From a phage: a stretch of 64,000 bases of DNA. The notes beneath the pieces were generated by a model. The model searched no databases. It saw only the letters and a program-made list of their open reading frames with translations, and was not told where the DNA came from. Position 1 is the stretch's first letter; each line of letters opens with the position of its first letter. The stretch lies in the sequence record PZ445530.1; one strand, written 5' to 3'. Below are positions 23,956 to 63,291 of the stretch, piece after piece. The position numbers and the translations under genes are program-made.

Positions 23956-24003
23956 GTACTACATAGCGCGGGAATACTTCCCGCCATTAATGAGGGTAAT
24001 TTA

Positions 24004-24141
24004 ATGAAAACTTTCAACGCAACAGCCTCGACAATTGGTTATATTATTACAGTACAAGCCGTGGATCTGGTAGCAGCAGCAAACAAGATTAAAAAGATGA
24101 TTCCGCCAGGTAGTGAATTTTCCGTTTGGGAAGTAAAATAA
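24004..24141 (+). CDS. hypothetical small protein (45 aa)
   Basis: ATG after TGAGGG SD. Confidence 0.4.
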   Translation: MKTFNATASTIGYIITVQAVDLVAAANKIKKMIPPGSEFSVWEVK

Positions 24142-24144
24142 ATC

Positions 24145-24172
24145 TTGACAATAATTTATTACTTGATAGACT
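24145..24172 (+). promoter_or_regulatory. sigma70-type promoter
   Basis: TTGACA-16nt-TAGACT. Confidence 0.5.
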
Positions 24173-24224
24173 GTATTTCGTAGTGCGGGGAAATAAGGCA
24201 ACGCCCATTAATGAGGGTAGAATC

Positions 24225-24329
24225 ATGTTAGAGAAAATTTTCACGGTTGTAGTAGTTGGCCTGGCATTATCGGTTGGATGGGTTGCAACTATGGCTAACA
24301 TGATCCTATCTTCCCACGGTATCGGTTAA
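24225..24329 (+). CDS. small hydrophobic peptide (34 aa)
   Basis: ATG after TGAGGG SD; FTVVVVGLALSVGWVATMANMIL. Confidence 0.4.
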   Translation: MLEKIFTVVVVGLALSVGWVATMANMILSSHGIG

Positions 24330-24339
24330 GGTGAATCAA

Positions 24340-24555
24340 ATGATCACGAATAAAACAGGTAAAACGGAATTCTTGCGCGGCTTGCAGGTCGGCAAGCCTG
24401 AGATCTGGCATTGCACTAAAACACCACGTGACGAAATGAAAGACTTCACCGCCACGCTGCAACGGGTAAAGATATCCATTACGCAGAAAAAAGCCTTGAT
24501 AGTGGTGGAAGGTGAGATCCCTCAAGCCGTTGTTATAGTTGAGCGTACAGCATAG
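24340..24555 (+). CDS. hypothetical protein
   Basis: ATG after AAGGTGA SD. Confidence 0.45.
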   Translation: MITNKTGKTEFLRGLQVGKPEIWHCTKTPRDEMKDFTATLQRVKISITQKKALIVVEGEIPQAVVIVERTA

Positions 24556-24646
24556 TTTAATTTATACCGATACCCGAAAATTAACCAACAAAGCATAAAC
24601 AGGCGGTTGCCGCCGCCTTAAACGTAGCAGAAAGAGGATAGATACA

Positions 24647-24880
24647 ATGAAAAAGATGATCGCAGTAGTTGCCCTGGTTCTGGAAGAAGAAATTAAAGCC
24701 ATGCACCATAGCAACAGATTTATTGGTGACGCGCAGGATAATATGAAAGTATGCCGCCATAAAGTTAATGAAGTGCTTAAAGAGTACGGCTATAAAGATC
24801 TTATGATCAAACGTGAGGAAAAATTCCGCTACCGTAACGACCTGGCAAATCGGATTTTTGAAATATACGAATCATTATAA
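24647..24880 (+). CDS. hypothetical protein
   Basis: 77-aa ORF, SD AAAGAGGA. Confidence 0.55.
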   Translation: MKKMIAVVALVLEEEIKAMHHSNRFIGDAQDNMKVCRHKVNEVLKEYGYKDLMIKREEKFRYRNDLANRIFEIYESL

Positions 24881-24898
24881 TTTTTTAACTGAATTATC

Positions 24899-24923
24899 AA
24901 GGGGCTTAGGCCCCTTTCTTTTT
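24899..24923 (+). terminator. rho-independent terminator
   Basis: AAGGGGC-TTAG-GCCCCTT followed by TCTTTTTGT. Confidence 0.6.
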
Positions 24924-24930
24924 GTCTGCT

Positions 24931-27360
24931 CTTCTCCTACCATAAACGGCCCTACCTGGCAAGTGGAATAATTGACTAGCCATCAATCCCACATACTGTA
25001 CAAATATACATGGAAAATAACTATTGCATAATTTTTCATTGTGTGGTAGCAAGTCCATTTTTACCCGTTTTCTCTCCCAAAAGTGCACGTAATGCCGCTA
25101 TTGCACAAATTTTAACCTGATGCACATCTCCAATATCTTGTCAACAACTAAAAATCTTTATAAGTCATACACTTACACAGCATCGAAAGCGTGTTCTACG
25201 CGAAAAATCGAGTATAACTATAGCCGCCAGATCTCAGAATTCACGTACGCACGCCATTCTATAGCCTGCAAAGTATTTATTCCAACCACAGAATAACGGA
25301 ATAGTCAATACCTGCATAAAATAATTATTCGTGCAAACTGCATAACATAAATCAGCTCAGGTGTCAACATTTTTCGTAAACAGTCCGAAATTATAACGAT
25401 GAGTTATCATAAACAGAGAAATCTTTAGTCGTCTAATGTTTACTGTACATTACTATACTGACTGGAATCATTAGATGACTAAGAGAAAGATAAGAAATAA
25501 TTAATAATGTAATTATTTTACCTGTAACAATAAGGCAACTATGCAAACGAATGGCATGGCGCGACGGAGTCGCGACATAATATAAAAGCAGTAACCATCA
25601 CCCCCGTGATAGTTTGTCTGCAAACTATTAATCAGATCATAGTTGCCTTGTATTTAGTTAATCATGACATAACAAGCAAGGCAACTATAGATCTGCTAAT
25701 AGTTGCCCTGCTTTTATATTATGTCATGCTAATTATAATCAGTGCGATTATTGTCATGTATAATTATTGTCATGCAAACGAATGGCATGGCTGATTATCG
25801 GTGTGTAAACAGTCAATCATGTAAATGGTTAGCATGTGAACAATCAGGAATGTAAACAATCCAGTGTGTAAACTAATAGGTGTGTAAAAGTGTCATGTTG
25901 TGTCAGTTAGGTCACATTATGTCAGACAAGTTTTTCTCCTCTTTGTCAAGTGCTGCATGAAAAATTTACAAACTGGTATGGTAGCATTTTTGCGGCCCTG
26001 TTTACATTCAGTAATGTATGTATAATCCTTGTTGTGTGGGCGTTTAGACGTCTAGACGGTTGGAAGTCCACAGGTCAATATCTAATCTATCGGCTGCTAA
26101 CTATATCCCACACAAATAGCAAGAAATATGATTGTTATATGCGTAAACTGTAACTCATGTTATCAATCCCTGTATGGATCGCCAGTGGTGCGCATAATGG
26201 GTATTATGTTAAATTGCCCGTAATGATAACTATTCTCACAATGATAGGTATTCTCATTCATCCACATAAAATAGGTTGCAAATGTTGTGCCACTGTGTGA
26301 ACGGCCTGGCCTATTAATTTGCCTCACTGCCTTGATATTTGAGAATTGTTATAAGAATGAGAAGTATTCCCATTTCGTCCGCCTGGCAGCACTCCTGTAG
26401 GTCAGGTCAAAATCGTGGTAGAATTGGGCCTGTTCAGATATTTCTGGCTGACTCTTCAGGTCTGTGTGGGAAAAGCCAACCTCTCCGGCGGGGCAGGGGG
26501 TCATGACGGGAAAATTGCAGGTCAATTAAAAATTTACGTGGTGTATGAAGCGCTCTTCAGGTAAGGCATGTATTATGGGATGAAACCCGCTTCAGGCAAT
26601 GATATTTGTGGGTGTGATATTTGCTGGAAAGCCAGATATGACGGGACTCCCGGCGGGGATGGGGTAGTACAGACAGGGAAAATATGAGAATGTAGTTGGG
26701 GAAATTGATCAGACAGGTAGAGTATGGAATATGTTACAAGTATGTTAAATATGGAGGTTGAATATCTGTAGGATTTGTGTGTAAAATCAAAGACTTAAGG
26801 GGTGTTGTGGTATTTTCTATAAATAATTCAAGTTTAATAGGCAATATTTGTCTCTATCCGTTTTGTGTGGTAAACAGATTCAGATTAGATTGGTTTACAA
26901 GTGTATACATAATATACAAATTAAAGATACAAGAAACCCCCCTCCCCCCTTCGGCTACCATTCACCTTTTCCTCTGACTGGTACTTAAACACTTATTCAG
27001 ACTCTTCAGGTTATCACCCATATATCATATGGCAGTGACTGGTGTCCTCCGGCCCCTCTTTCGTCACCCGTCCGCTTCGCCATGCTAATGCCATAGCCAA
27101 TGGTTCGGTTGTTCACCCTGTTCACTCAGGTGTATCTCCATACCCCTTCAAACCGAAGAGAACAGAAAACCCGAATTACTCGGTAAAAGAAAAGAGAAGA
27201 ACTTAATTTTATCAGGATAGGCAAGAATGTCAAGGCATGACTGCTCACTAAACAAGCAAACAGTCATGTGTGGAAGGTAAGTGATTGTGGTGGTGGGAAA
27301 TTTAGTTGAAAGATGTGTTATAGGTGCTTCCAGCACTTTAGCCGGGCAGCTAATTGTGTG
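24931..27360. repeat. 2.4-kb AT-rich non-coding region dense in direct and inverted repeats
   Basis: no ORF with SD; 20-bp direct repeat ATGCAAACGAATGGCATGGC at ~25541 and ~25772; inverted GGCAACTAT/ATAGTTGCC; GTGTGTAAAC x3; CTCTTCAGG x4; CCGGCGGGG x2. Confidence 0.55.
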
Positions 27361-27576
27361 TCAGTCCAGCGGTTCATCCTCTACTTCACTGAAATCAATG
27401 TTCATGGTCTCTTCCCAACCATCGATCTCAGCACAAGAGTGGAGTTCTTTAGGGTTTACTCCCAAAGCCTCAGCAACAGAGTCTATATTTAACACCTCTG
27501 GCAGGTATGATTCATCGAATTCAAGGTAAATCAGGCCACGAGTGTTGTCAGCTCCACCAAATATTTCTATCTTCAT
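27361..27576 (-). CDS. small acidic protein (MKIEI... family)
   Basis: 71 aa, acidic, N-terminus MKIEI as in other members. Confidence 0.5.
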   Translation of the reverse strand: MKIEIFGGADNTRGLIYLEFDESYLPEVLNIDSVAEALGVNPKELHSCAEIDGWEETMNIDFSEVEDEPLD

Positions 27577-27697
27577 GAAATCTCCTCTGGAAATGAGAGT
27601 GTGAACAGGGTTTTATACGTTCCGATGCACAGGAATTATGCACGTTTGCCTCTTCAGGCCATGCTTTAGCATGAGGAACCTGTGTGGGCTCGGTGCT

Positions 27698-27910
27698 TCA
27701 TAGTCTACCACCCCTGAACTCTTCGTGCTCAGGCATAATAGAGAACCAGATATCTACGATGTCTTCCCACGTTAGGTCATCAGCCTCAGGATCTACCTGG
27801 AGCGAAGATGGAGAATCTTCAGAATCTAAGTTTTCCTCTTTCACTGGCTCAGCCAAGGGACATATAGTCACTCCTTTGGATGTCTCTTCAGATGCATGTG
27901 TGTTTATCAT
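27698..27910 (-). CDS. small acidic protein
   Basis: 70 aa, Asp/Glu-rich. Confidence 0.45.
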   Translation of the reverse strand: MINTHASEETSKGVTICPLAEPVKEENLDSEDSPSSLQVDPEADDLTWEDIVDIWFSIMPEHEEFRGGRL

Positions 27911-28270
27911 GTTCCACCCGTGAGTATTCCGGCAACAGCCGCTATGGACGTAATGATCATCAGGATCACCACTAAAACTTCGGACAATGTTCTCATTGTG
28001 TACTCCATATTCTACAAACTATGTGTGGATACTATCACTGGATCGGTAATGTGTCAACAGAAACGCCGCGAGGGTTTGGTTAAAATCCGAGCGTATGGTG
28101 ATTTGGGTCAAAACGGACGTGCGTTCTCGCTACGCTCGAAATACGGAGTTGTTTGTAGGGAGCTCTTAAACGCTCTGTAATGAGATTAACTGCCCAAGGT
28201 ATGCAATCGTGCACCAGATAAAGAAAAGGACGCCACAGAGCGTCCTAGGTGTCTTAAATTTGATATTTTG

Positions 28271-59752: not shown

Positions 59753-60286
59753 TTAAAGTTCCATAAAGTTTTCTACAGTTTCAATAAATGCTTTATCAGA
59801 GAAAGCGTCAACAGCACCGTTAAACCATACAGGGATCCCGCGATCCTCATATTGATAAAGGTCGCTACGTGAAATGCCACTTCCATCTGCACTCTGCGAA
59901 TCATACTTGTTTACAATCAGCAGTTTTGTGCCTTTACAAGTAGCAGGAAACAATTCCCAGTTAAAATTAATAACTGTGTTAGAACAACCTACCAGGATCA
60001 CCATATCATTGCTTGTGAGAGATGTCAACAGGTCATACATGTCTGTATACTTAGGAGCAACCTCACCGAAGAACACTACATTGGGCTTAACCCAGGTATA
60101 CTTGCCTGTATCTACCTCCGTGTATCCGATATTTTTAATTACATCATTACCTTCAGCATCTTCGTAGGTGATTTCAGGCAAATACCCGTGGACATGTAAA
60201 ATATCTTCATGTTTTACACCAGCACGCTCCAGCAAATCATCTACATTGGTAGTAAGGTTGATCACACGACCAGACCAGCGGGTCAT
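59753..60286 (-). CDS. Sir2-like (sirtuin-fold) protein, apparently lacking the N-terminal NAD-binding GAGIS region and the Zn-binding cysteines
   Basis: NVDDLLERAG, ILHVHG, KPNVVFFGE, MVILVGCSNTV match sirtuin motifs QNID.LH.RAG / LHG / RP.VV.FGE / LV(I/V)GTS. Confidence 0.45.
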   Translation of the reverse strand: MTRWSGRVINLTTNVDDLLERAGVKHEDILHVHGYLPEITYEDAEGNDVIKNIGYTEVDTGKYTWVKPNVVFFGEVAPKYTDMYDLLTSLTSNDMVILVGCSNTVINFNWELFPATCKGTKLLIVNKYDSQSADGSGISRSDLYQYEDRGIPVWFNGAVDAFSDKAFIETVENFMEL

Positions 60287-60791
60287 GGAGTTTGATTCAT
60301 GTCAAAAACACAGATCTCAGTATGATCACAATCTTGACAGTATGAATGCGGGAATCATCGCCGAGTGGAACTCTGTTGTGTCACCTGCAGACACTGTGTT
60401 CCACTTGGGAGATATTGCGTGCACTAATGATAAGAATATCAACAACTTACTTCCAGATATTCTAAATATGTTGAACGGACATATTATTCTTGTTCGTGGC
60501 AACCATGACACAAGGACGACTGTCAGAATTATGAAAGAGTTCGGTCATGAGGTTGTAGATTATTACGAGCTTCGCCACAACAAGAATTTAATCTGTATGA
60601 GCCATTACCAGTTTGCAAAGTGGAACAGAAAGCCTCACGGATCAGTCCAACTGTTCGGTCATGCTCACGGAACCACACAACAGTTGTTTGGCAGGCAGCT
60701 TGATGTCGGTTGGGATGTGTGGGGGAGACTCTTACCATTAGAAGAGGCATACCGTATTGCAATGAGTTTTGATATTGACAGCAGGGAGTAA
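60285..60791 (+). CDS. metallophosphoesterase-like protein, N-terminal metal-binding motif I absent or degenerate
   Basis: IAEWNSVVSPADTVFHLGDIA (motif II), LVRGNHD (motif III), GHAHG; start abuts the Sir2-like start codon on the other strand. Confidence 0.45.
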   Translation: MEFDSCQKHRSQYDHNLDSMNAGIIAEWNSVVSPADTVFHLGDIACTNDKNINNLLPDILNMLNGHIILVRGNHDTRTTVRIMKEFGHEVVDYYELRHNKNLICMSHYQFAKWNRKPHGSVQLFGHAHGTTQQLFGRQLDVGWDVWGRLLPLEEAYRIAMSFDIDSRE

Positions 60792-60838
60792 TCCCTGCTA
60801 TTTTAAAGAAAATTGCCACACAAGGAGAATCAGGAGAT

Positions 60839-61189
60839 ATGAAAGATGGGGATAAGCTGCTATATCTTAAAGTCCCCCTTGAAATACTATCTATGTCAAA
60901 AGTTTTGAATGACACAACTGGGGAGGTTGTTGTTCTTGACTTGTATGACAAGATCGTATACTGCTACCTGCACAACTGGTATAAGCTTGGAGGAAATTCA
61001 CGCTTCACACCAAGCACAAGGAAAATTGCAGCAGATGTTGGGATAAAGAAAACAAAAGCAGCAGCGTGCGTTAAAACTTTAGAATGTGCAGGAGTGGTTG
61101 AAACATCCACACAAGGGAGAGGTAAAAGATGCACATTTTCCAAAGTTTTGCCACCAGAAGAAGTTATTCGGATGTCAACAACTGGTTAG
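60839..61189 (+). CDS. helix-turn-helix DNA-binding protein
   Basis: STRKIAADVGIKKTKAAACVKTLECAGVV HTH-like segment; SD AGGAGA; immediately upstream of palindromic operator array. Confidence 0.5.
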   Translation: MKDGDKLLYLKVPLEILSMSKVLNDTTGEVVVLDLYDKIVYCYLHNWYKLGGNSRFTPSTRKIAADVGIKKTKAAACVKTLECAGVVETSTQGRGKRCTFSKVLPPEEVIRMSTTG

Positions 61190-61264
61190 ACCAGTAAAAA
61201 CTTAAATATCTGTACTATAAGGATTCGTATGTTTTATGTTCGCCATGGAACGGATACTATTAAC

Positions 61265-61345
61265 TGTCCGTGATACGGACACTACTGTCCGTCACGCGGA
61301 CACATCTGCCCGTAATACGGACACTAACTGTCCGTGATACGGACA
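61265..61345. promoter_or_regulatory. array of four 17-bp palindromic sites TGTCCGT-N3-ACGGACA at 21-22 bp spacing
   Basis: copies at ~61265, ~61286, ~61307, ~61329; copies 1 and 4 perfect. Confidence 0.6.
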
Positions 61346-61349
61346 CATA

Positions 61350-61480
61350 AAGAATATAACTAAAATAACTAAATAATAAAAAATAAAAGATCTAGTACTT
61401 ATGGTACTAAGTACATATACTTAACTTATGTAGAATATACTAGATCCTAAGTACCATGTTTTAAATTTATTACTTACTAT
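61350..61480. repeat. AT-rich region with palindromes (GTACTTA...TAAGTAC)
   Basis: lies between operator array and GC-rich element. Confidence 0.4.
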
Positions 61481-61484
61481 GGGC

Positions 61485-61750
61485 AGTGTCGGCCCTTCAT
61501 TGGCACTCGCCTACGAGGGGCGAGATGCCGGGCCTCCTTGGTGCACACAATAACAGAAGTTCATACATGCAGGTCTGTTAACATGTGTGGGAGCGAAGCG
61601 ATAGCGCAGGCCAAAGGCCGAGCACTGATGTGGACCACCGACGAAAGCTTGCCAGCGCCGTAAGGAGTCGGTTGAGAGTCTCCCGCGCGAGCTTGGATGA
61701 AGTTTATGTGTGGAAACTGACAAGAAGGCCCCTAAATCGCTCCACAGCTA
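61485..61750 (+). ncRNA. candidate structured non-coding RNA (GC-rich island, unknown family)
   Basis: marked local GC excess, long imperfect hairpin ~61491-61534, no credible ORF on either strand. Confidence 0.25.
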
Positions 61751-61850
61751 TATAAACTATACCAGGTAATGCAATCGCACCAGTTTGATAGAAAAGCTCG
61801 TTACAAAGCGATACAGTGAGTTTTTCTATAACTTGAAGAGGGGGGCAGCT

Positions 61851-62429
61851 ATGGGTTCACGCAAAGATGACCGTGAAAAGATTGCAAAACGTTATCAGAA
61901 TGAAGAACAGATGGAGAAAACTTTCAAGTGGAAGCCCGGTTTCCAGCGTAATCATTCTAACGCTCGTGATCGTAAGCATCCGGATAAGTGGCTAACACCG
62001 CCAAATGATGGCATGCAGGTTGGTGATGAGAAGGAGATGTCACCTGGAAAAGATGGCAACTACATTCGCACTAAGGAAGCTGGTCCAAAGGATGACAGCT
62101 ATCTTGTAGATAAGGTTCTTAATGGTATTGATGTAGATGTTGACACTGCACGAAACCTTTTTCTTGGTTGGTATCGTACAGGGTTTTTCGACATCAAGGC
62201 TATTCGTCGTGTTTGTGATATTAAAAAGTCTGCCTATGATGATGACTCCCTACATCGCACTCTGAGACAATACTCAGAGAGATACGGTCATCCAGTTATC
62301 ACTCTTGACGATATTAACGAAGTGATGTATCATGCAGAGGTTGTTGCAGGTAGATTCGGTGATGCATATCTAGATATCCTTTCTGCAAAGGATGAGGTAA
62401 TGTTAAATAAGATTTACTATGAACGCTGA
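61851..62429 (+). CDS. hypothetical protein
   Basis: ATG after GAGGGGGG SD; 192 aa. Confidence 0.5.
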   Translation: MGSRKDDREKIAKRYQNEEQMEKTFKWKPGFQRNHSNARDRKHPDKWLTPPNDGMQVGDEKEMSPGKDGNYIRTKEAGPKDDSYLVDKVLNGIDVDVDTARNLFLGWYRTGFFDIKAIRRVCDIKKSAYDDDSLHRTLRQYSERYGHPVITLDDINEVMYHAEVVAGRFGDAYLDILSAKDEVMLNKIYYER

Positions 62430-62947: not shown

Positions 62948-63291
62948 GGTTGTTTTCGTGTATCATGATGAATATCCAATTTAAAGATGAATTTGATGGC
63001 TTTATCTCCGGATGCTTTGAAACAGGGTTCGGAGAAGGCTGAGTTCCCCTTAGAGGGCTTGATAGTGCACCACACTTAAAATGGTAGGGGCAGCCAGCAC
63101 ATGACGATGTGACCCCAGCCAACCTGTAATAAGGTCTAGCCAAAGCGCGGTAATGGGCTCTGGTAACCCACTTGTTGGGTCTTGCTGGTCCAGGACGCTG
63201 GACAAGTCGCAGGGAATACCACCCTGCGGCGAACTTGACAATCAGTATTTGCTATGATAAAATCCACCTATCACGTGATAATGGAGGAAAC

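Follow-up and report, generated by a model that had tools for sequence, protein, structure and literature searches.

A candidate iteron-type origin in an rV5-like phage

The 64,000-nucleotide (nt) stretch of phage DNA in sequence record PZ445530.1 (hereafter, the window) carries, between 60839 and 61785, a gene for a 116-amino-acid (aa) winged-helix protein followed by four phased palindromes, an AT-rich tract, and a GC-rich non-coding block. On balance, this locus is best interpreted as a candidate iteron-type replication-origin cassette with an attached folded element, either RNA or single-stranded DNA, whose role is putative. The 1.2 kb around the locus shows 98–99.8% identity to ca. 120 genomes of Escherichia coli phages of the genus Vequintavirus (rV5-like phages), and its sequence assigns the window to an rV5-like phage of this genus. 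In the rV5 genome paper, the origin was sought by skew analysis, and only changes at transcription-direction switches were found (PMC3606486). Since all these skew changes are tied to such switches, the rV5 origin is undefined in the literature searched. GenBank records name the 116-aa protein variously 'putative transcriptional regulator' or 'replication initiation protein', and some of them already mark the four repeats as 'repeat_region'. A preliminary description of the window had proposed an origin or partition site at this locus or, alternatively, a repressor-controlled promoter driving a non-coding RNA (ncRNA).

The iteron array (61261–61346) starts 75 nt past the stop codon of the open reading frame (ORF) at 60839–61189. 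It consists of four 17-bp palindromes (61265–61281, 61286–61302, 61307–61323, and 61329–61345), each in a unit of 21–22 bp, in which TGTCCGTNNNACGGACA begins at 61265, 61286, 61307, and 61329 with 0, 1, 1, and 0 mismatches, respectively. There is no other copy in the 64 kb, and 0 of 100 shuffles reached four matches. When genome contigs were scanned with the 17-mer, matches were obtained only in unrelated taxa and were chance-like. The start-to-start distances of 21, 21, and 22 bp correspond to two helical turns, so the four dyads would lie on one face of the helix. The four copies of TGTCCGT-N3-ACGGACA spaced 21–22 bp apart on the same helix face, as first described, were thus confirmed. An iteron-type theta origin is expected to have at least three direct repeats in helical phase together with an adjacent AT-rich unwinding element; the array has four such repeats, and an AT-rich tract adjoins it.

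This tract (61346–61480), a candidate DNA-unwinding element, contains A-rich 8–9-mers, two GATC sites, and interleaved inverted repeats. In a nearest-neighbour calculation, 61346–61445 (GC content, 0.19) was the least stable 100-bp duplex, ranking first of ca. 63,900 segments, with a free energy (dG) of −102 compared to a mean of −133 and a standard deviation of 6, i.e. ca. 5 standard deviations below the mean. The short A-rich 8–9-mers are arranged in tandem at 61356–61381, the GATC sites are at 61389 and 61443, and the extra inverted repeats are 61389–61397/61438–61446 and 61401–61411/61447–61457. The very AT-rich tract with further palindromes that had been noted after the repeats is therefore real, and it is the stability minimum of the 64 kb.

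Sequence constraint was measured on nine phage sequences as diversity (mean pairwise difference). In the flanking genes, third codon positions gave values of 0.10–0.12. Diversity was 0.029 in the iterons, 0.031 in the AT tract, and 0.024 in the core of the GC-rich block (61583–61690; described below); the iterons, the AT tract, and this 104-nt core are constrained like codon positions 1 and 2. The palindromes are thus conserved in related genomes, a point on which the preliminary description had made its reading depend. The spacer between the gene and the array (61190–61260) evolves fast, its diversity of 0.14 being at or above the third-codon-position rate, and the 3′ part of the GC-rich block (61691–61785; 0.116) is near that rate. 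With a diversity of 0.031, the AT tract is conserved as sequence and not merely in composition. Rep proteins are reported to make specific contacts with a single strand of the unwinding element (PMC4081077). The conservation of the AT tract would fit such strand-specific contact; it would fit equally well unrecognised protein sites or promoters.

The winged-helix protein and its predicted recognition of the repeats

The gene at 60839–61189 (+ strand) encodes a stand-alone RepA_N-like winged-helix protein, which comparisons with PHROG, PDB, and Foldseek predict to be an iteron-binding domain. The protein matched PHROG 12838 'replication initiation protein' with an E-value of 5e-80. In Pfam (E ≤ 1), HTH_36 (24.5 bits; cut-off, 25) and DUF6945 (27.4 bits; cut-off, 28) were both just below threshold, and Phage_rep_O gave no match. 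The sole significant sequence match among solved structures was 4RO3 (E = 3e-6 with a single sequence and 1.7e-9 with a profile). This structure is the N-terminal domain (NTD) from RepA of the Vibrio cholerae satellite PLE, which binds semi-palindromic iterons at the PLE origin and was itself assigned to RepA_N by structure, not by sequence (PMC7145576).

An AlphaFold2 (AF2) model of the 116-aa protein built on seven sequences had a pLDDT of 80; a single-sequence model (pLDDT 39) was not usable. Foldseek with the former placed 4ro3 at the top (E = 5e-6; TM 0.69), followed by the NTDs of staphylococcal RepA proteins, 4pql, 4pt7, and 5kbj (E = 2e-4 to 1e-3; sequence identity, ca. 21%). The alignments with 4ro3 and the staphylococcal RepA NTDs extended over ca. 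110–114 columns compared to 70–85 for ordinary repressors. Among viral structures, the matches included proteins labelled 'replication protein' or 'replication initiator protein', DUF6945 proteins, and ORF88 of ICP1; the last of these is Odn, a nuclease based on a RepA_N-like domain (PMC8263062). Furthermore, the whole phage protein aligned with the N-terminus of the Rep protein of the plasmids described below (27% identity, E = 2e-6). The HTH-like character attributed earlier to this protein was borne out, the 4RO3 sequence match and Foldseek specifying a winged helix. Thus, an N-terminal winged helix related to those of RepA_N-type initiators by sequence and fold is present, and repeats that appear to be its cognate semi-palindromic sites, as judged from their phasing and from the swap described next, lie alongside it. 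These comparisons indicate that the 116-aa protein is a stand-alone homolog of the iteron-binding NTD of RepA_N-type initiators.

Scans of IMG/VR yielded a single divergent rV5-like contig, L129 (UViG_3300010279_000001, positions 1585–2770). In L129, the corresponding locus is bordered by the metallophosphatase gene and by the downstream gene found in the window, and it encodes a protein of 143 aa with 28% identity to the window protein (E = 7e-7). Its palindromes are of a different family (GATACA..TGTATC type), and they are followed by an A-rich tract and then by the same hairpin H1 and core as in the GC-rich block of the window. Such a co-swap of DNA-binding domain and repeats is the pattern described for PLE replicon modules (PMC8263062). 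Because the protein and the repeats change together in L129 while the folded block stays, this swap is the best in-silico evidence that the protein would recognise the adjacent repeats.

The same observations have to be weighed against a role of the protein as a transcription factor, in which the protein, sitting on the four palindromes, would repress a promoter in the AT tract or block read-through from the sigma-70-like promoter at 60775–60804 (+ strand; TTGACA-18-TATTTT with TG), upstream of the winged-helix gene. The transcription so blocked would otherwise reach the GC-rich block, the next genes, and the tRNA cluster. This promoter, 460 bp upstream of the array, is the sole sigma-70-like site in 60700–62000, and the rV5 GenBank record has a promoter annotated at the homologous place. 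A scan for sigma-70-type sites, with phage-specific promoter types outside its scope, gave no promoter in 60805–62000 on either strand; no intrinsic terminator was found in this interval on either strand. Since no promoter is predicted in 60805–61851, the gene downstream of the block probably relies on read-through across the array, which a repressor could exploit. Perfect 17-bp palindromes are typical of operators, the protein consists of a DNA-binding domain only, many GenBank records call it a transcriptional regulator, and a promoter in the AT tract could account for the conservation of its sequence. However, the nearest relatives in sequence and fold are origin-binding domains, and the homologous arrangement in the plasmids belongs to their sole Rep-like gene. 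In addition, the repeats are downstream of the gene and not over its promoter, and no sigma-70 promoter lies in or beside the array, where an operator would be expected to adjoin one. We regard a repressor as a minor but credible possibility. The repressor-controlled promoter driving an ncRNA that had been offered as the alternative is weaker than the origin, there being neither a sigma-70 promoter nor a terminator in 60805–62000.

Clustered repeats beside a small DNA-binding protein are the sole feature that the locus has in common with a centromere-like partition site bound by the HTH protein. No ParA/ParB-type domains, and hence no ParA/ParB-type ATPase, were detected among the neighbouring proteins. 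Moreover, no lysogeny genes were found in the phage region examined, in keeping with a lytic phage, and the protein family points to initiators. Partition can practically be set aside. From the earlier pair 'origin or partition site', the origin is retained on the strength of protein homology, plasmid layout, and L129, and partition is dropped for want of a ParA/ParB-like neighbour.

A conserved folded core in the GC-rich block

The GC-rich block follows the AT tract, and 61490–61689 is the GC-richest 200 bp of the window (0.595 vs 0.43). All its structural elements are described for the + strand. Hairpin H1 (61491–61534) has an outer stem GGCCC...GGGCC and inner stems GGCA/UGCC and CUCGCC/GGCGAG. 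H1 is predicted in every phage homolog and in one plasmid, L007, where two double changes convert the inner stems to GUCA/UGAC and CUCUCC/GGAGAG, respectively. It is followed by a variable, dispensable hairpin (61544–61587; arms 61544–61564 and 61567–61587), of whose 5′ arm 18 nt are deleted in rV5 and Pr121LW.

The next element is a conserved core domain of 104 nt (61585–61688). Its closing helix P1 pairs 61585–61591 with 61682–61688 (GUGUGGG/CCCGCGC) and includes two invariant U.G pairs; within it are the hairpin P2 (61609–61619), AAUGUGGA, the helix P5 (61637–61642 with 61667–61672), which has a conserved 24-nt loop, and GAGUCU. Three sequence types of the core were distinguished (phage, plasmid A, and plasmid B), and P1, P2, AAUGUGGA, GAGUCU, and P5 are kept in all of them. 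P2 occupies the same place in all types with unrelated sequences (GGCC-AAA-GGCC, AUGC-GUCA-GCAU, and GUGC-GAA-GCAC), and P5 is wholly different between types (ACCGAC/GUCGGU, GCUGCC/GGCAGC, and GUCCGGAU/AUCCGGAC). The single-stranded motifs AAUGUGGA and GAGUCU are invariant across types. A covariance model comprising P1 and P5 (R1) found exactly one copy per element, that of the window being at 61585–61688. In the R1 alignment, 93.5% of cells pair vs 30–58% when the partners are slid. Four of the six P5 pairs are changed on both sides, and 0 of 500 shuffles reached the observed score. L129 contributes a G-C to A-U change in an extension of P1. P1 is possible on the + strand only, and the core is 3–8 kcal/mol more stable on this strand in four of five types. 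The evidence for the predicted structure of the block comes from the comparison of homologs, not from thermodynamics.

The 3′ part of the GC-rich block (61689–61785, + strand) evolves fast and is loosely similar to the CCCCUAAAU... hairpins of the plasmids. It contains a second UGUGUGG at 61707, an alternative partner of CCCGCGC to that in P1. RNAalifold, run on the phages, pairs CCCGCGC with this second copy; therefore, alternative pairings are possible. Separately, a chain of mutually exclusive pairings can be drawn in 61544–61713, namely CACACA (61544) with UGUGUGGG (61584), UGUGUGGG with CCCGCGC (61682), and CCCGCGC with UGUGUGG (61707). In plasmids L130 and L131, CCCGCGC-UCAU-GUGUGGG is present as a local hairpin. 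This chain could be a conformational switch or simply the reuse of a motif.

A coding function of the block was tested because two indels among the phages are multiples of three (18 and 3 nt). The ORFs in the block are at most 70 aa, close plasmid variants differ by 1-nt indels within the conserved core (lengths of 98, 97, and 96 nt) with unchanged flanks, and no codon periodicity was seen at the variable sites in an alignment inspected by eye. On these grounds, protein coding was rejected, and rV5 'ORF 78' and similar annotated ORFs are considered spurious since the coding evidence for the block is negative. We also rejected a decayed Rep C-terminal coding region, because the plasmids carry the block plus an intact Rep, and host-derived DNA, as no GC-block match was obtained on any E. 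coli chromosome. The GC-rich non-coding island of the preliminary description accordingly stands, being the GC-richest 200 bp and having 1-nt core indels in plasmid variants. No tRNA or tmRNA was found in the block, and it has no similarity to any phage record outside Vequintavirus. The comparison with Rfam foreseen in that description matched no family: there was no relevant match for the window at the gathering score, for the region at permissive E-values (chance-level only), or for the plasmid non-coding region.

In the Alma phage genome (L002; OV101294.1), four 1-base indels lie in homopolymer runs of the GC block, at the equivalents of 61494, 61516, 61632, and 61727; these are probably sequencing errors and not biology.

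The folded core is shared with phage-like plasmids

The GC-rich block matches unannotated DNA of small circular E. coli plasmids (13.2–13.7 kb) and similar metagenome contigs. That it is part of a cassette shared with plasmids went unnoticed in the preliminary description. This family of 13.2–13.9 kb (L007, L008, L130–L133, L138, L140, and L142, including metagenome contigs) is represented by records NZ_CP020521.1, NZ_CP043822.1, NZ_CP035869.1, CP148565.1, CP134895.1, and NZ_CP178698.1. The 13-kb records are deposited as circular plasmids, and one record of 39.6 kb, in which the matched region occurs three times, may be a trimer. The plasmid genes encode a major head protein, Neck1-like, tape-measure, and tail-fibre-like proteins, a resolvase-type HTH protein, and a Rep protein of ca. 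300 aa; the 13-kb plasmids encode no terminase or portal. Rep, the product of their only replication-like gene, passes HTH_36 and matches PHROG replication-initiation/O-like families.

Upstream of the plasmid rep gene is a 2.2-kb non-coding region in which 4–7 palindromic repeats occur, with a distance of 23 bp between the last ones. They vary in sequence between plasmids, and the palindromes of the window are absent from all plasmids fetched. The repeats are followed by a short AT-rich stretch and then by a run of GC-rich hairpin modules, variable in number and with cUUCGg and cUACGg loops, that ends in the homolog of the phage core. Since the plasmid region has equivalent parts one after another, the order of iterons, AT tract, and folded block is the same in phage and plasmids, and in each element the folded core is always on the same side of the AT tract. 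Promoter-like and terminator-like sites flank the plasmid block on the minus strand only and are directed toward the iterons. Apart from the core (61–105 nt, with 85% identity in a stretch of 61 nt), the window and the plasmids have no sizeable DNA in common; smaller shared pieces are H1 in L007 and a 25-nt element at 26333–26357 of the window with 96% identity to a conserved non-coding spot of the plasmids. No rV5-like protein is closely related to the head protein of the plasmids. The plasmid family may be an unrecognised phage satellite or a minimal phage-plasmid.

This distribution bears on whether the GC-rich block is an independent ncRNA gene, with a regulatory, anti-defence, or protein-sponging function, that merely lies beside the origin and was shared by horizontal transfer. 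Such a gene would account for the compensatory changes in P5 and H1, the invariant U.G pairs of P1, which forms only on the + strand (the operon strand), the RNA-typical loops and variable module number in the plasmids, and the switch-like look of the alternative pairings of CCCGCGC with two UGUGUGG copies; as it has no Rfam family, it would be new. On the other hand, neither a promoter nor a terminator belonging to the block was found in the phage, and the sites resembling them around the plasmid block are on the opposite strand. The block holds its position relative to the iterons and the AT tract in replicons with nothing else in common, and its folding energy is no better than that of shuffles. 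An independent ncRNA gene is therefore unlikely.

The gene content of the plasmids raises a further explanation, in which the locus is a phage-parasite module: the 13-kb plasmids would be rV5-like satellites, the shared core would give them access to replisome loading or packaging, and the DNA-binding-only protein would be a Rep domain, captured and employed in this conflict in the manner of ICP1 Odn. The presence of head, neck, and tape-measure proteins without terminase or portal is what a satellite would show, and the DNA shared with the window is limited to the core (with H1 in L007) and the 25-nt element. ICP1, whose replisome is related, acquired a RepA_N-like domain from its satellite (PMC8263062), and the rV5 DNA polymerase is nearest to those of FV3, CR3, and ICP1 (PMC3606486). 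However, the phage protein lacks a nuclease or other effector domain, and it is the phage itself that carries its cognate palindromes, which none of the plasmids fetched contains. Furthermore, the plasmid head protein has no close rV5-like counterpart, and compensatory changes in hairpins would be unnecessary for a packaging signal bound as duplex. We consider this explanation highly unlikely. For the GC-rich block by itself, a packaging (pac) site may be an alternative; here too, duplex-bound sites do not predict compensatory hairpin changes.

A bolder combination of these ideas, which we hold to be doubtful, is that the core and H1 form a new class of cis-acting folded origin element, that the plasmids are rV5-like satellites capturing the phage replisome (or packaging) through it, and that the domain-only RepA_N protein is the phage-side half.

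Proposed function of the cassette and points that weigh against it

The rV5 genome has been described to encode a T7-like primase-helicase and a polymerase (PMC3606486). In the origin reading, dimers of the 116-aa protein would occupy the four dyads on one helix face, as homology and the co-variation in L129 support. The loaded array may bend or strain the DNA and thereby open the adjacent AT tract, at which the phage's own T7-like primase-helicase and polymerase would enter. Entry of the phage's own enzymes would explain why the protein has no C-terminal host-recruiting domain. The GC-rich block may bound the bubble, and its + strand, transcribed or unwound, would fold into H1 and the core. 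Because the core is the sole sizeable shared element and is always on the same side of the AT tract, it could act in cis as a signal needed by both replicons, e.g. for priming, loading, or R-loop formation.

Several features bear on whether the block would act as a transcript or as unwound DNA. Pointing to RNA are the coincidence of the + strand with that of the operon, the U.G pairs of P1, and the cUUCGg/cUACGg loops of the plasmids. Pointing to unwound DNA, the block lacks its own promoter and terminator, adjoins the unwinding element, and contains GCGAAGC, a very stable DNA mini-hairpin. We lean slightly toward a + strand RNA. Since the minus strand carries the promoter-like and terminator-like sites of the plasmids, a transcript of the RNA II type from that strand should also be kept in view.

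Several results weigh against this interpretation of the locus. The protein ends at residue 116, and its plasmid and database homologs run 80–230 residues further; the C-terminal replisome-recruiting domain of RepA_N initiators is missing, and by its sequence the protein alone may only bind DNA. Pfam RepA_N (PF06970) did not match it at E ≤ 1. Because this model gives no match and the C-terminal domain is absent, the protein is not a full member of the RepA_N initiators. No DnaA boxes or IHF sites were found in 61150–61860, and there is no perfect DnaA box in the whole window; such sites are common, not universal, at iteron-type theta origins. Within the phage collection, the protein, the repeats, and the block are confined to Vequintavirus, so sister genera with the same replisome must start replication otherwise. 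The nearest published rV5 skew change, at 66675–66725 in rV5 coordinates, coincides with a transcription-direction switch (PMC3606486); it is ca. 1.45 kb away from the iterons, and that analysis gave no pointer to the locus.

As to the folded element, its strand preference is modest, inconsistent across homologs, and mixed for whole blocks. The covariation in the block rests on ca. 3–4 independent lineages, and no covariation was found within the phages alone (RNAalifold covariation term, +1.14). The minimum free energy of the block has a z-score of only ca. −1 on either strand. The 'long hairpins' of the preliminary description are thus supported by the compensatory changes in P5 and H1 and unsupported by folding energy.

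Surroundings of the locus

Between the GC-rich block and the next gene is an AU-rich hairpin (61788–61829, + strand) with 12-bp arms and an 18-nt loop, directly before the ribosome-binding site of that gene (ATG at 61851). It is kept in the divergent L129, and the interval that contains it (61786–61850) has a diversity of 0.027. Since no T run follows, the hairpin is not a terminator. The downstream 192-aa protein was considered as the missing C-terminal half of the initiator and rejected, as it shows no similarity.

On the other side of the cassette, at 60274–60282, between Sir2-like and metallophosphatase genes, the window has ca. 2.1 kb fewer than phage Gotham. The missing interval comprises the RNA-ligase and polynucleotide-kinase/phosphatase genes found in Gotham and rV5, and the junction falls within the 5′ end of the metallophosphatase gene. 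At the locus itself, 18–20 GenBank records of the MG0656xx series, labelled 'Campylobacter phage' with Campylobacter jejuni as host, are 98–99.5% identical to E. coli rV5-like phages, and this host label looks doubtful.

Elsewhere in the window, ca. 4 kb at 24000–28200 has no ORF longer than 94 aa and probably corresponds to the 'non-coding' box of the rV5 paper. Seven of the 17 TGTGTGG copies in the whole window are within 25040–28022. A second ORF-free GC-rich island, which is the third GC-richest 200 bp of the window, lies at 62991–63230, upstream of the tRNA cluster, and is flanked by two sequences that look by eye like sigma-70 promoters. This island had no Rfam match and no plasmid similarity, and its conservation is no higher than that of its neighbours.

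Comparison with known systems

The closest parallel is RepA and the origin of PLE. The DNA-binding NTDs are homologous (E = 3e-6 and 1.7e-9; TM 0.69), cognate semi-palindromic direct repeats lie in a non-coding region, domain and repeats swap as a module, and the partner phage of PLE has a T7-like replisome. In contrast to PLE RepA, the window protein is the NTD alone and is encoded by the lytic phage itself. The window has four near-perfect 17-bp palindromes with a 3-bp centre, whereas the PLE repeats have arms converging on a poly-A tract, and only in the window system is a conserved folded GC-rich block attached. ICP1 Odn is likewise a lytic-phage protein based on a RepA_N-like iteron-binding domain, and the window protein gave a fold match to it (ORF88). 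However, Odn has a T5orf172/GIY-YIG nuclease and targets the origin of the satellite (PMC8263062). The window protein has no second domain, and its predicted sites are in its own genome.

The initiators of pSK41 and pTZ2162 (4PQL, 4PT7, and 5KBJ) match the fold of the window protein over the whole 114–116 residues, 5KBJ being the domain on iteron DNA, although the sequence identity is only ca. 21%. In staphylococcal RepA_N initiators, the C-terminal domains contact the host primase, and the iterons lie inside repA.

In ori-lambda, an AT-rich tract comes after four dyad-symmetric iterons with a spacing of ca. two helical turns; the origin lies inside the O gene, and the C-terminal domain of O recruits the P-DnaB complex. 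The window resembles it in its four phased dyads and the AT tract behind them, and the plasmid Rep matches PHROG 'replication initiation O-like' families. It differs in that the 116-aa protein does not match Pfam Phage_rep_O and has no C-terminal recruiting domain like that of O.

Strand-specific folded elements that lie beside iteron origins or supply primers include ssiA/ssiB of RSF1010, the G-site of R1, RNA II of ColE1, and the R-loop origins of T4. Like these, the folded element of the window is a direct neighbour of iterons and an AT tract, and the first primer could come from it; we know of no dedicated primase for it. Unlike these, it has no promoter that we could find, and its block has no similarity to phage records outside Vequintavirus.

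Relative to these systems, three features appear, from the sequence comparisons, to be new: a RepA_N-like protein of a lytic phage that consists of the domain only; for rV5-like phages, a defined candidate origin; and a conserved folded element, absent from Rfam, that is attached to such an origin and shared with phage-like plasmids. The rV5-like phages are widely isolated and are candidates for therapy and biocontrol, and the locus provides a precise candidate for their undefined origin. A RepA_N-like binding domain that works, or is at least conserved, without its C-terminal half bears on the way in which such initiators pass control to a phage replisome. Two replicons that are otherwise unrelated have the folded core in common, and its occurrence in plasmids that carry only part of a virion gene set suggests that E. 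coli may harbour a helper-satellite pair not recognised so far. If true, the combination of satellite and origin signal would amount to an E. coli equivalent of ICP1-PLE, centred on a structured RNA or DNA signal.

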